Shown here one piece after another: positions 8,941 through 24,606 of a stretch of 64,000 nucleotides of DNA (the stretch's first letter is position 1; every line of letters begins with the position of its first letter). The stretch lies in the IMG/VR virus record IMGVR_UViG_3300042261_001929, positions 1 to 64,000 of that record, one strand, 5' to 3'. The translations under genes were made by a program, and so were the position numbers. The notes under the pieces are model-generated. The model worked only from the letters and a program-made list of their open reading frames with translations, searched no databases and was not told where the DNA came from. The stretch is from a virus.

Positions 8941-10821
8941 TTATTTTTTATATTTGTTCATGATTTTTCCTACGATTGGGTGCGCGTCTTTTCCCATTCT
9001 AAATAGCGAATACTGTTCTGACCACCATTCACTTGAATTTTTCTTACTATAAATGGATGGAAAGTCATCTTTATCATTTTTTGCGGCATCTAAGAAAGTG
9101 TTGTTAATTAGCTGAATATCATCCTTTGATAGTGAATTGTCCCATCTATAATGCCCTGCTTCATGAAATATGATATTTCGAATCCTGTCATTTCCAGGAG
9201 GGAAAAGCTGAGCCGCCGTATTTGGTATGAACTTCCTGCCTTCCTCCTTCTGTTTTATAAGGTCATTCAACTCTATGCTGATCTTAGCCCTTAATTTCAA
9301 TAAACCATAATTTACCTTATCACCCATGCTTTTTCTTGCATTATCAATTTCGGTTAGGCCCTTCTCGCGCACGGCAATCATGCTTTCAAGACTCGATTCT
9401 TCATTGTTCTCCTTCTCGTTTTTAAAATGTCTTGCCGAGATATCAAGTCTAGAAGTTGTCTTTACTATCTTATTTCCATCAGGCCCTCTTTGTGTATATC
9501 TAGTCAACGTCATTCTCGCTGCATTGGCTCCAGGAACATGTCCAATTTCATCGAGGTGTATTGGCATATAGGCATTTTCTTCTTTCAATGCACTCAATAT
9601 AACTTTAGTATCCTCTATTTTAATTCCCTTCAAATCAACTGAAGTTGCTCCGAATGTTTTTTTCATATCTTCGTACACTGGATTAACTTTTGCAGGCTTC
9701 TTTTCTTCCACTTTAGTGTCTGATTCAGCGGGATCACATTCAAATGTGCCCTGTTTATAGCTGTCTTTTTTACATTTTCCTCTCGCGTTCTCCTTTGGTT
9801 CTACATATTTCGACACTGGTAAATCGTTGACAACAACCACTTTCGATCGATTAATTAGGATCATATACTGTTGGTCAGGCACATCAATTGCATCATAACC
9901 CATCAGAGCAGCAAATATGGCTGGTTCTGATAATAGGCTTCCTTTTGCCCGAAGGGATTCATTAAAGTTCTTTGCATCATCAAATTCCTTGAATGACATC
10001 TTTGCCATCTCATCTCTGGATATTTCTTTTTCAAACAAATTGTTTATGTAATCGGACTTTATACGTTCTAATTCCTTATCCTTAATTATCCTAGCATTAT
10101 TAGATAGTGTCATCCTTATTACACTGCCTGATGTTTTGTTATTACTTGTAAGTTCGCTCCTTGAATACTTTTCTGCAACTTCCTTACCTGCTTTTCCATA
10201 TGCTGTATATATTCCAGTCCCATACATTCCGCCTCGCGTTTCGAAATCCCCATTAATGAACGTGTCTTTGGCTTTTGGATCAGATACACCACGCCAAAGT
10301 TCCGCACTTCCTTTTTTTACCAAGGCATCCATCTCTTTTGAAGATACCTTTTTCGGTTTATTGTCATATCCAAGTTCGTGTAAATACCCTTTCACTGCCA
10401 AACTTTCAGGACCATAAAGGCTATCTCGATTTTCCTTTTCAGATACAGGAAACTTACCATATTTGATCTTATACACGATCATCTCTTTGGATGTTTTCAT
10501 TGTATCGAAATCACTCATGCGATCTCGTGACTCTTTCGCTTCATCTCCGTCACTACATTTAAAAGATTCATCTACCGTTCCTTTTTTACATTTGCCGCGA
10601 CGATTTTCCTTAAGATTTATCTTTTCATATTTTCCAGTCAGATCCTTGTTTTCTTTCTTCTTAGAAAATATCTCATTTATTATATTTCCATCATCATCAA
10701 ACTCACTGATAATGACGGTTGTAGCAAGTTCTTCATCAACGGATTCATGATCATCATTCAAATATGCAACCGTGGCATAACTTCCTCCACTTGGTGTAGG
10801 ACCATCAATTTTTTTCATCAT
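8941..10821 (-). CDS. Modular virion-effector-like protein: TPxGG domain, ART-like domain, HExxH metallopeptidase
   Basis: GPTPSGGSY...ISEFDDDG; LWRGV...GMYGTGIY...GYDAI; FHEAGH...SIYS...EWWSE; two KEN-Cys tags. Confidence 0.7.
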   Translation of the reverse strand: MMKKIDGPTPSGGSYATVAYLNDDHESVDEELATTVIISEFDDDGNIINEIFSKKKENKDLTGKYEKINLKENRRGKCKKGTVDESFKCSDGDEAKESRDRMSDFDTMKTSKEMIVYKIKYGKFPVSEKENRDSLYGPESLAVKGYLHELGYDNKPKKVSSKEMDALVKKGSAELWRGVSDPKAKDTFINGDFETRGGMYGTGIYTAYGKAGKEVAEKYSRSELTSNNKTSGSVIRMTLSNNARIIKDKELERIKSDYINNLFEKEISRDEMAKMSFKEFDDAKNFNESLRAKGSLLSEPAIFAALMGYDAIDVPDQQYMILINRSKVVVVNDLPVSKYVEPKENARGKCKKDSYKQGTFECDPAESDTKVEEKKPAKVNPVYEDMKKTFGATSVDLKGIKIEDTKVILSALKEENAYMPIHLDEIGHVPGANAARMTLTRYTQRGPDGNKIVKTTSRLDISARHFKNEKENNEESSLESMIAVREKGLTEIDNARKSMGDKVNYGLLKLRAKISIELNDLIKQKEEGRKFIPNTAAQLFPPGNDRIRNIIFHEAGHYRWDNSLSKDDIQLINNTFLDAAKNDKDDFPSIYSKKNSSEWWSEQYSLFRMGKDAHPIVGKIMNKYKK

Positions 10822-22971: not shown

Positions 22972-24606
22972 TTAAACCAACCCTTTTAATATTGGACGTA
23001 ACAGAGGACTAACTAAGTCCTCCCTATTATTAACATGTAAAGCATAGTTTTCAGCGAACCATTCATTACAGTTCGTATCACCATATACTGAGGCACATTG
23101 AAGTGAATCCCCGCCTTTCTCCTTTCCCTTTTTATCATATTTCTCAGAAAAGTATGCCCTTCTTACGGCGACATCCACCTTATGATTAGAATTCATTAAG
23201 TGATGCCCATATTCATGATCGATTGTAAGCTTTCCTCTGTCCACATTTTTATCAATATACGCACTAACATTATGTGGTCTGGTTCCAGCTTTATTTTCAA
23301 TTGTCCATGTATAACCACTATCTGAACTTTTTTCTAAATCATCTAACTGTTTATTAGCCTTCTCTATTGCACTTTTTGCATACTCGACATCATATTTTTT
23401 ACCATCAGATCCAACCCCATTATTGTCAATAATAGCCTGTAATCCCTTTTTCATGCGGGTTAGGATGTCATTGCCGTGCTCCCTCCTATCATCACCAAAG
23501 GTTTTTCTGTCATATTGTTTAGGGTCTAAAAACATAACACCCTCAATTGACATACTTGCTGACCACGAAACATTTCCATCTTCAGGTCTAACAGTGGTTA
23601 TATATTTAAGTGGTTTTATCCCGTTTAACTTGGACCTTTCGTTCAATTTGGAAATTATATCTGGCAATTTTTTCAACTGATCATCGCTTAGGCCATCCAG
23701 ATGCACTGACTCAGGATCGGATACAAATGACTTTATTTTATTTGAAGTATCTGCCAGTAGTGTTGCACTGTCGGTGTTAGTATTTAAATCTTTCCTATTG
23801 ACCTCATCTGGTTTATTGTTAATATTAGAAGGTCCAATCTCAACTGGTTCTGGTTCTGGCTTTGTTGTAGTGTCATTTGTAACATCTTTTGGTGTCTCAG
23901 GTACCGGCTCTTGTTTTGTATCTGACCGGCTTTCACTTGTATTAGATTTTTTTGACACATTATATTCTTTAAGGACTTTCTTTAATTCCGATTTGCTCAT
24001 TGTCTCTGTAAAGTTGTTAGCAGTCACAGTTATCTCATCACCATTTACGTCATCAATGAAAATATCACCAATAAGACCTGCGTTCCAAGTCTCTCCTGGT
24101 TTCATTATTTCAACGGCATGATCTGAATTTATAACACGAGAAGAAGCTTGAGGAACATTTTCGGCCACGGCCACCTCTTTCTGAGCTTTATCTTTCGGTT
24201 TAGTAGCAACGGTTTCCTTCTGTGCAGTCGTTTTTCCTGACTTTGCGGCTCTAAACTCCTTCATAGCAGCTTTTAGCTCTTTGAAAGTTTCCTTTGATAC
24301 CTTCCCAGAAGCTTTCTCTGCCTTTACTTTTGCAATAACACTTTTTACATTTTCAACATGCACTGACAGCTCTGGATTTTTTCTCTCTTTTTTCACTTTT
24401 TTAGCGGCGTCCCTTGCTGCTTTAGTAGCATCTTTAGTAACCTTTTTATCTTTTTTTGCTTGGATTTTTGCATCTCTTTCTTTTTTCACGGTCTCTTTAG
24501 CAAGACATTCTTCTGTACAACAAAACGACCCTTGCCCGACTGTTCCTTCTGGGCATTTTTTGTTCAGTTTTTGATAAAAAGGAATTATGTCAACATACCT
24601 CATCAA
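22972..24606 (-). CDS. Tagged protein with C-terminal HExxH metallopeptidase
   Basis: KLNKKCPEGTVGQGSFCC tag; DHEYGH...SVYG...EWFAENY. Confidence 0.7.
   Translation of the reverse strand: MMRYVDIIPFYQKLNKKCPEGTVGQGSFCCTEECLAKETVKKERDAKIQAKKDKKVTKDATKAARDAAKKVKKERKNPELSVHVENVKSVIAKVKAEKASGKVSKETFKELKAAMKEFRAAKSGKTTAQKETVATKPKDKAQKEVAVAENVPQASSRVINSDHAVEIMKPGETWNAGLIGDIFIDDVNGDEITVTANNFTETMSKSELKKVLKEYNVSKKSNTSESRSDTKQEPVPETPKDVTNDTTTKPEPEPVEIGPSNINNKPDEVNRKDLNTNTDSATLLADTSNKIKSFVSDPESVHLDGLSDDQLKKLPDIISKLNERSKLNGIKPLKYITTVRPEDGNVSWSASMSIEGVMFLDPKQYDRKTFGDDRREHGNDILTRMKKGLQAIIDNNGVGSDGKKYDVEYAKSAIEKANKQLDDLEKSSDSGYTWTIENKAGTRPHNVSAYIDKNVDRGKLTIDHEYGHHLMNSNHKVDVAVRRAYFSEKYDKKGKEKGGDSLQCASVYGDTNCNEWFAENYALHVNNREDLVSPLLRPILKGLV

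Follow-up and report, generated by a model that had tools for sequence, protein, structure and literature searches.

The first 64 kb (64,000 nucleotides, nt) of the 77.9-kb IMG/VR virus record IMGVR_UViG_3300042261_001929, hereafter the window, carries a minus-strand block of head genes in which the genes following two peptidase-ending proteins, of 544 and 1041 amino acids (aa), both start with a small homologous domain, here called domain A. Domain A belongs to a very large unnamed protein family, and in viruses it occupies a recurrent slot, in the order portal, MuF protein with its enzyme, domain A and scaffold, where the protein encoded directly in front most often carries a zincin-type metallopeptidase. 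The link between domain A and the peptidase is real but not exclusive. We tentatively read domain A as a co-translated binding module, which would dock, as a cap or tether, on the enzyme that ends the packaged protein encoded before it, and we give this reading a probability of roughly 0.35.

A pattern scan of IMG/VR returned 190 domain A loci, and the counts for viral neighbourhoods given here refer to the best 80 of these 190. The 80 loci hold 87 domain A open reading frames (ORFs), mostly of 54-96 aa, and the gene directly upstream encodes a protein of 300-1,800 aa and usually overlaps the domain A gene by 4 or 1 nt. A zincin-bearing protein stands immediately before 43 of the 87 ORFs, in most cases overlapping by 4 or 1 nt; whether the domain accompanies peptidase genes in other genomes had been set as a test by an earlier sequence-only reading of the window, and it does so in this form. 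Seen from the peptidase side, 51 zincin ORFs lie within 6 kb of a domain A gene, and about 44 of them directly precede it. Pfam detected Phage_Mu_F in 34 of 60 upstream proteins, along with portal, minor-capsid-2 and ADP-ribosyltransferase families. According to local models, the last recognisable domain in the unique adjacent upstream proteins is a zincin (38 proteins), a JAB domain (seven), an R-S-E ADP-ribosyltransferase (seven), MuF only (five) or another domain A (three), with eight ends unrecognised, and 14 domain A ORFs have no adjacent upstream gene. Downstream of domain A lie the genes for head scaffold, maturation protease and major head protein. The only cultured phages that tblastn matched (Brevibacillus phage Jenst, NC_028805; L084, 6001-6219) have domain A amid genes of DNA metabolism (ligase, RecB-like exonuclease) and not after a MuF gene; two genes upstream a "virion structural protein" is encoded. 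A zincin/MuF pattern scan with a narrower alignment returned only a locus that was already known, and no relatives of the present virus were found in viral contigs.

In the virus studied here, a six-frame search of the whole 77.9-kb record detected just two copies of domain A, at the start of the 171-aa and 1395-aa proteins, which match each other with 49% identity (E 1.7e-7), so that the homologous domain of about 55 aa reported behind the 544-aa and 1041-aa proteins is indeed present. The copy of the 1395-aa protein (residues 9-64) matches phrog_33375 with E 7e-9, as does, at its own score, the copy of the 171-aa protein, and the local domain A family model gave 1e-19 for the 171-aa and 2e-23 for the 1395-aa protein. 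Both copies retain C10, C13, C28, A30, H46 and D53 (numbering of the 1395-aa protein). The upstream proteins were searched with a zincin model built from the C-terminal domains of other viral proteins, which matched the 544-aa protein at residues 357-542 (E 8e-13), the 1041-aa protein at its C-terminus (864-1040; E 7e-19) and at an internal copy (185-361; E 1e-16), and the 626-aa protein at 436-625 (E 1e-13). In all four of these domains, an HExxH motif, a downstream Tyr and a zinc-binding Glu were found, and the profile of their family matches solved M34 enzymes. The earlier claim that peptidase ends lie upstream thus holds for the 544-aa and 1041-aa proteins, whereas the end of the 1395-aa protein, also taken for a peptidase, aligns with the family over the HExxH helix alone (hhalign probability 54%); it carries HEAAH and later, by eye and after a longer insert, S-x-Y-A ... 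E-D-F-A-E, and is probably a divergent zincin.

The genes concerned overlap or nearly abut, as had been described: the 544-aa and 171-aa genes are separated by TAA, 4 nt and ATG, the 1041-aa and 1395-aa genes overlap in TAATG with GAGGAGG upstream, the 1395-aa and 626-aa genes overlap in ATGA, and purine-rich stretches precede the junctions. Joining of the 1041-aa and 1395-aa frames by read-through or frameshift was rejected, as just eight open codons precede the ATG and no canonical slippery site is present. In the large genes, the ADP-ribosyltransferase, GNAT and other modules are spaced by a repeated K-[LE]-N ... C ... G ... C motif, here called the Cys tag. The small N-terminal domain was reported to stand ahead of the first tag in two cases, which agrees with first tags at residue 77 of the 1395-aa protein and residue 70 of the 626-aa protein; the 171-aa protein has no Cys tag. 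That the small domains would be cleavable there follows from an assumption of the earlier reading, which took the tags for cleavage sites.

Across the 29 sequences of the zincin family alignment H, E, H, Y and E never vary, and the profile of the family matched anthrax lethal factor in the PDB (2l0r/4dv8, E 1.7e-9 to 2.3e-8), followed by Zmp1/PPEP-1 (E ~4e-3). With anthrax lethal factor and Pro-Pro endopeptidase (M34), the window zincins share HExxH, the downstream Tyr and the Glu of the E-x-x-A-E helix; unlike lethal factor, these predicted peptidases comprise the catalytic core of about 140 residues only, without the substrate-binding or PA-binding domains. The second type of end behind which domain A sits is a domain with the motif E ... 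H-N-H-P ... S-x2-D, which was modelled with a predicted local distance difference test (pLDDT) score of 85.6. As the top Foldseek matches of this model in the PDB are all JAB/MPN proteins (RadC, AMSH, JAMM1; probability 0.92-1.0), the predicted structure confirmed a JAB/MPN+ fold.

As a family, domain A is remarkably common. A profile of three domain A copies, searched against 1.84 billion proteins at a cut-off of E <= 1e-3, yielded 7,529 cluster representatives. The best 150 of these include 97 solo proteins (110 aa or shorter), 35 tandem repeats with two to four copies, nine longer proteins with an N-terminal domain A, seven tandem repeats with another part and one protein with domain A at its C-terminus. 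Across an 81-member alignment C10, C13, C28, A30, H46 and D53 are invariant, and P-x-G-I-P and G-D-x-G are nearly so. The only library family matched is phrog_33375, which has no function assigned and is matched by 80 of the 81 aligned members. Solo members gave no match in Pfam or NCBIfam (0/81, HIPIP PF01355 included), no relative was found in the PDB with Foldseek, VIA-align or a profile search of PDB sequences, and the ESM Atlas led only to unnamed, mostly viral clusters. The family also reaches beyond virion proteins: in P0119 (206 aa), domain A forms the C-terminus of what is predicted to be a multi-pass membrane protein.

The arrangement C-x2-C ... C ... H together with the invariant Asp is the pattern expected of a small metal-stabilised fold; AlphaFold2 modelled the domain with moderate confidence (pLDDT 76.8). 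Domain A is mildly acidic (median isoelectric point, pI, 5.3) and the zincin is basic (8.7); the acidic composition speaks against binding of nucleic acids and makes a DNA-binding zinc finger unlikely. A possible lead came from two tandem-repeat members, which match Pfam HIPIP (E 4e-5) and NF033716 (E 4.5e-7). The ligand spacing, C-x2-C, about 14 residues, C, about 17 residues and a fourth ligand, resembles that of HiPIP and of the small subunit of 4-hydroxyphenylacetate decarboxylase, which hold a Cys-ligated [4Fe-4S] cluster, but the fourth ligand in domain A is His rather than Cys. Membership of the HiPIP family was dropped, given three Cys plus one His, the failure of all 81 solo members to match PF01355 and the lack of a fold match in the PDB. 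A structural zinc site appears at least as likely as an iron-sulfur cluster.

Domain A is usually free-standing, and its N-terminal position in the 1395-aa polyprotein is therefore a fusion, one that is common to its closest relatives. Four proteins with 67-69% identity to this copy (P0046, P0029, P0028 and P0072) all consist of domain A, then the Cys tag, then differing cargo. In P0046 the identity is 65% over 267 residues, and the protein ends exactly at the module border where the 1395-aa protein runs on; gene borders thus shift between modules, whose order stays the same. Such movement of borders supports the earlier proposal that a separate cistron has been fused to the next polyprotein, which is borne out by the 97 solo proteins among the best 150 representatives and by natural fusions on both sides. 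Single chains comprise zincin-A-A (P0012, P0022), MuF-JAB-A-A (P0041), A-zincin (P0126, P0029), A ... MuF (P0110) and A-GNAT-zincin-zincin (P0072). One metagenome scan for relatives of the virus found nothing beyond loci in which unrelated proteins share the Tpt1-like module. This Tpt1/KptA-like H-Y module is 66-67% identical to segments of larger unrelated proteins on two metagenome contigs (L086, 3744-4187; L087, 7953-9068), and it appears to move between proteins.

The binding-module reading may be set out as follows. In its usual viral form, domain A is encoded by a gene of its own (55-95 aa), which is translationally coupled to the gene of a virion-packaged MuF-type polyvalent effector and lies directly behind it; in the present lineage the stop codon after domain A has been lost, once joining it to an acidic tail (171-aa protein) and once to a multi-effector polyprotein (1395-aa protein). 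That domain A comes after a zincin end is thus inherited synteny, and the apparent daisy chain results from shifts of gene borders. As to function, domain A would be a non-catalytic module which is made along with the preceding protein and may dock on the enzyme at the C-terminus of that protein, as a cap or as a partner that keeps it latent. When fused, it might tether the next cargo to the previous one and so bring that next cargo into the head for processing at the adjacent tag.

This reading draws on the size and invariant residues of the family, on the solo genes that overlap the upstream stop, on the MuF and enzyme ends upstream and the head genes downstream, on the fusions on both sides, on the short zincin genes without MuF that precede domain A genes, on the constant domain A and tag of the closest relatives, and on an acidic domain A beside a basic zincin. 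Domain A subfamilies also cluster by partner type, if weakly, since nine changes were counted on a poorly resolved tree, compared with 12-14 after shuffling. Several observations weigh against the reading. In the window itself, neither the 626-aa zincin nor the internal zincin of the 1041-aa protein has domain A behind it. In a cellular set of 80 loci from genomes and metagenome-assembled genomes (MAGs), covering many bacterial phyla and several methanogen lineages, about 20 of the 94 domain A ORFs lie behind a MuF or zincin protein and 49 have no adjacent upstream gene on the same strand. Many of these cellular genes are solitary, with opposite-strand neighbours and with a pyrophosphatase, transporters or biosynthetic enzymes nearby. 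An evenly drawn but small sample of 401 Bacillota genomes contained the zincin in six and domain A in 14, with one shared locus, and of its 15 domain A loci just four stand behind a MuF-type protein (MuF-JAB in two, MuF-ADP-ribosyltransferase in one and a zincin in one). Tandem arrays of three to five diverged domain A genes, found in Planctomycetota (L105/L169, L170, L094, L128) and on a viral contig (L023), misfit a simple one-to-one partner in the case of L023, L094, L105 and L128. Finally, the mirror-tree correlation between domain A and zincin, r 0.76 (partial r 0.59), fell to r 0.14 once close relatives were removed. Among MuF-type genes with a C-terminal zincin that were not selected for domain A (Bacillota and Planctomycetota), domain A follows two of five, and at least two Bacillota genes without it (L172, L174) are followed by a different small overlapping ORF, sharing a short A-P-E-[ED]-[LV] ... 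motif, which may represent an alternative partner family. As to the chromosomal copies, three Methanomicrobia/Euryarchaeota MAGs (L090, L092, L098) carry a solitary domain A of 76-99 aa, about 55% identical to the window copy and adjoining an opposite-strand inorganic pyrophosphatase gene, which looks like a conserved, non-viral chromosomal setting.

Such solitary cellular homologues would also be expected if domain A were an independent cargo or effector module, for example a small metalloprotein acting in the host after injection, which has no physical tie to the peptidase and merely shares a slot behind MuF that collects such genes. This explanation ranks directly behind the binding module in probability. 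It is favoured by the tag which sets domain A off in the 1395-aa protein like the other modules, by the occurrence of domain A at N-termini, at C-termini, in tandem arrays and on the membrane protein P0119, and by its position behind unrelated enzyme ends. It accounts less well for the mostly overlapping stop and start codons with which zincin ORFs immediately precede domain A (the 44 of 51 given above), for chains combining zincin and domain A which recur in unrelated lineages, and for short gene sets of zincin and domain A with no MuF or head genes nearby. The latter are seen in a planctomycete genome (L169, L170), in which two to four domain A genes stand behind a short, separate zincin gene of 168-181 aa that has no MuF domain.

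Another thought is that domain A serves as an N-terminal capsid-targeting handle, comparable to the T4 capsid-targeting sequence or to MuF, which would bind the portal, scaffold or core and be clipped at the first tag independently of any upstream peptidase. The constant domain A and tag followed by variable cargo, in the window as well as in P0046, P0029, P0028 and P0072, would suit such a handle, as would the short leaders before the tag in other polyproteins of the block and the scaffold and protease genes adjoining domain A. We nevertheless regard it as unlikely, for most family members are solo proteins without cargo, and the solitary cellular copies have no capsid to target.

The sequence-only reading had seen domain A as a cognate immunity protein or inhibitor, blocking the active site of the preceding zincin and fused to the next gene. 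The fused cistron and the peptidase link have stood up, but the toxin-specific immunity has not, as a conserved domain A stands behind three enzyme types and occurs in solitary copies. The layout does fit the published scheme of a long MuF toxin followed by a small ORF (PMC5576092), paralogue arrays of domain A resemble poly-immunity loci, the MuF-zincin genes lacking domain A (L172, L174) have other small overlapping ORFs, and behind the divergent peptidase end of the 1395-aa protein the next gene starts with another small domain. On the other hand, domain A is better conserved than the zincin (mean distance 0.57 vs 0.80), although immunity proteins usually diverge fast, and the genes lie in a late head operon of a probable lytic-cycle module. 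A classical immunity role is rather unlikely, because one conserved family is found behind three unrelated enzyme folds (JAB and ADP-ribosyltransferase ends besides the zincin), is fused in cis to the very enzyme to be neutralised and stands alone in chromosomes beside housekeeping genes; blockade of the preceding zincin by a cognate domain A is accordingly improbable in our view.

The different N-terminal stretch described for the gene after the 1395-aa peptidase, here the putative domain B, is present as noted (residues 1-58 of the 626-aa protein). No homologue of it was found by word-based searches, a viral scan or the ESM Atlas, and structural comparison gave look-alikes among small proteins only; a single acidic match of 18 residues (L085) was unconvincing. 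That each kind of peptidase may have a partner of its own is thus argued from this single orphan sequence. An extended form of the binding-module reading, implied by the title of the earlier reading, would have domain A or B at each N-terminus dock on the C-terminal metallopeptidase encoded just before, giving a non-covalent head-to-tail cargo chain. We consider such a chain improbable to a greater degree than any of the explanations above. If it were true, capsid loading and ejection would be ordered, the adjacent Cys tag would be placed in the peptidase active site for cleavage, and the free-standing domain A of other phages would represent chain terminators or caps.

Two known systems are close to the arrangement described here. 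Jamet et al. 2017 (PMC5576092) described polymorphic toxins of the MuF type in temperate phages, encoded in the head module next to the portal gene. Their C-terminal enzymes vary, 20% of those in the set being metallopeptidases, and the small ORFs behind the MuF genes were proposed as immunity genes. Most of the domain A relatives examined, of 54-96 aa, occupy that same slot; the parts of that paper considered here name no specific family for the small ORF. Unlike these pairs, the zincin proteins of the window lack MuF, the equivalents of the small ORF are the 171-aa protein and the N-terminus of the 1395-aa protein, and the same domain A family stands behind three unrelated enzyme types, in contrast to cognate immunity genes. 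The second system is that of the virion-delivered polyvalent proteins of Iyer, Burroughs, Anand, de Souza and Aravind 2017 (PMC5512222), which combine ADP-ribosyltransferase, GNAT, RadC/JAB and lethal-factor-like metallopeptidase (MPTase) domains; the MPTase was proposed to process the polypeptide, and the polyvalent MPTases were linked to the lethal factor structure. The seven large genes of the window, which lie between the portal and MuF genes, fit this description, with zincin, ADP-ribosyltransferase and zincin in the 1041-aa protein and domain A, Tpt1-like, GNAT, YunG-like and probable zincin parts in the 1395-aa protein, but the cassette is divided among several coupled genes and does not form a single giant protein. 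No Cys/His mini-domain paired with an MPTase was met in the parts of Iyer et al. 2017 considered, which name only "LPD28 with an MPTase" (PMC5512222), and 0 of 81 domain A members match Pfam, including any LPD families there.

The genes and domains of the block are listed in Table 1. On the minus strand, the large terminase and portal genes are followed by seven large genes (544, 171, 500, 563, 1041, 1395 and 626 aa) and, further on, by the 1184-aa gene. The ADP-ribosyltransferase of the 1041-aa protein matches Pfam ADPrib_exo_Tox (E 2.6e-21). The MuF domain of the 1184-aa protein was identified by the local MuF model (E 1.5e-15), by PHROG families of head morphogenesis and minor head proteins and by an alignment containing the CRC motif. 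It thus lies in the last gene of the block, about 18 kb from the portal gene and not directly after it; the local MuF model found no MuF domain in the 544-, 1041- and 1395-aa proteins, of which only the 544-aa gene abuts the portal gene. Cys tags lie within the first 10-35 residues of four genes (22972-24606, 20987-22489, 19037-20728 and 15005-18130) as well as between modules. Just before them comes a short conserved motif that resembles a helix (Q-x-A-F-E, then K-L-N-x-x-C). In the relatives P0029, P0028 and P0072 the tag takes the form K-[LE]-N-A-N-D-C-H-x-P-x-G-S-x-N-G-G-Q-F-C.

Table 1. Head-block genes of the window and the domains discussed in the text (nt positions)
Feature	Position	Strand	Remarks
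Large terminase	27940-29586	-	
Portal protein, 552 aa	24617..26275	-	Start of head-module block; phrog_12 portal E 4e-6; Pfam Portal_Mu E 1.6e-3
544-aa protein	22972..24606	-	Cys tag at residue 12; C-terminal lethal-factor-like zincin ~357-542 (nt 22981-23538), HEYGH at 463
171-aa protein	22452..22967	-	Domain A at residues 1-53 (nt 22809-22967) and 115-aa acidic tail (pI 4.05)
1041-aa polyvalent protein	15005..18130	-	Tag, zincin 185-361, tag, ADP-ribosyltransferase 486-646, C-terminal zincin 864-1040 (nt 15011-15541)
1395-aa polyprotein	10818..15005	-	Domain A, tag 77, Tpt1/KptA-like H-Y module, tag 279, GNAT and YunG-like parts, tags 716 and 976, C-terminal HEAAH (residue 1251)
Domain A of 1395-aa polyprotein	14814..15002	-	Residues 2-64; ligand-like C10, C13, C28, H46, D53
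Domain B of 626-aa protein	10648..10821	-	N-terminal ~58 residues, ahead of first tag (residue 70); orphan
626-aa protein	8941..10821	-	Last gene of run; zincin residues 436-625, HEAGH at 552; opposite-strand genes follow
1184-aa protein	2932..6486	-	Only MuF (SPP1 gp7-like) domain of block, residues 106-245, nt 5752-6171

The minus-strand cassette is broken by opposite-strand genes at 18201-19040 (+) and 7180-8934 (+), which comprise a Cys-rich ORF of 279 aa and ORFs of 407 and 159 aa, none of them with a family match. A full-length nicotinamide phosphoribosyltransferase gene (35254-36639, minus strand; phrog_448, E 4.8e-165) is also possessed by this virus, which has several ADP-ribosyltransferase modules as well. 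Their presence together suggests a viral salvage of nicotinamide adenine dinucleotide (NAD), feeding or offsetting NAD consumption. The nearest portal proteins among GenBank phages come from viruses assigned to Methanosarcinales and Methanomicrobiales, and the best cellular matches of domain A likewise come from methanogens; because both are linked to methanogens, the source is taken as probably an archaeal tailed virus.

Phage head proteins which carry enzymes into the host are already known, and the small genes behind them have been called immunity genes and left uncharacterised. The present analysis singles out one very large, unnamed family of mini-proteins, predicted to bind metal, which fills that slot more often than any other across the viral contigs analysed. 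It occurs in viruses of both bacteria and methanogenic archaea, and is tied by gene order and by fusions to zincin and JAB ends. If domain A controls or tethers the packaged peptidase, it would open a way to understand how polyvalent cargo stays inactive and how its loading and release come about, and if it is instead an independent effector, it would be among the most widespread uncharacterised ones.

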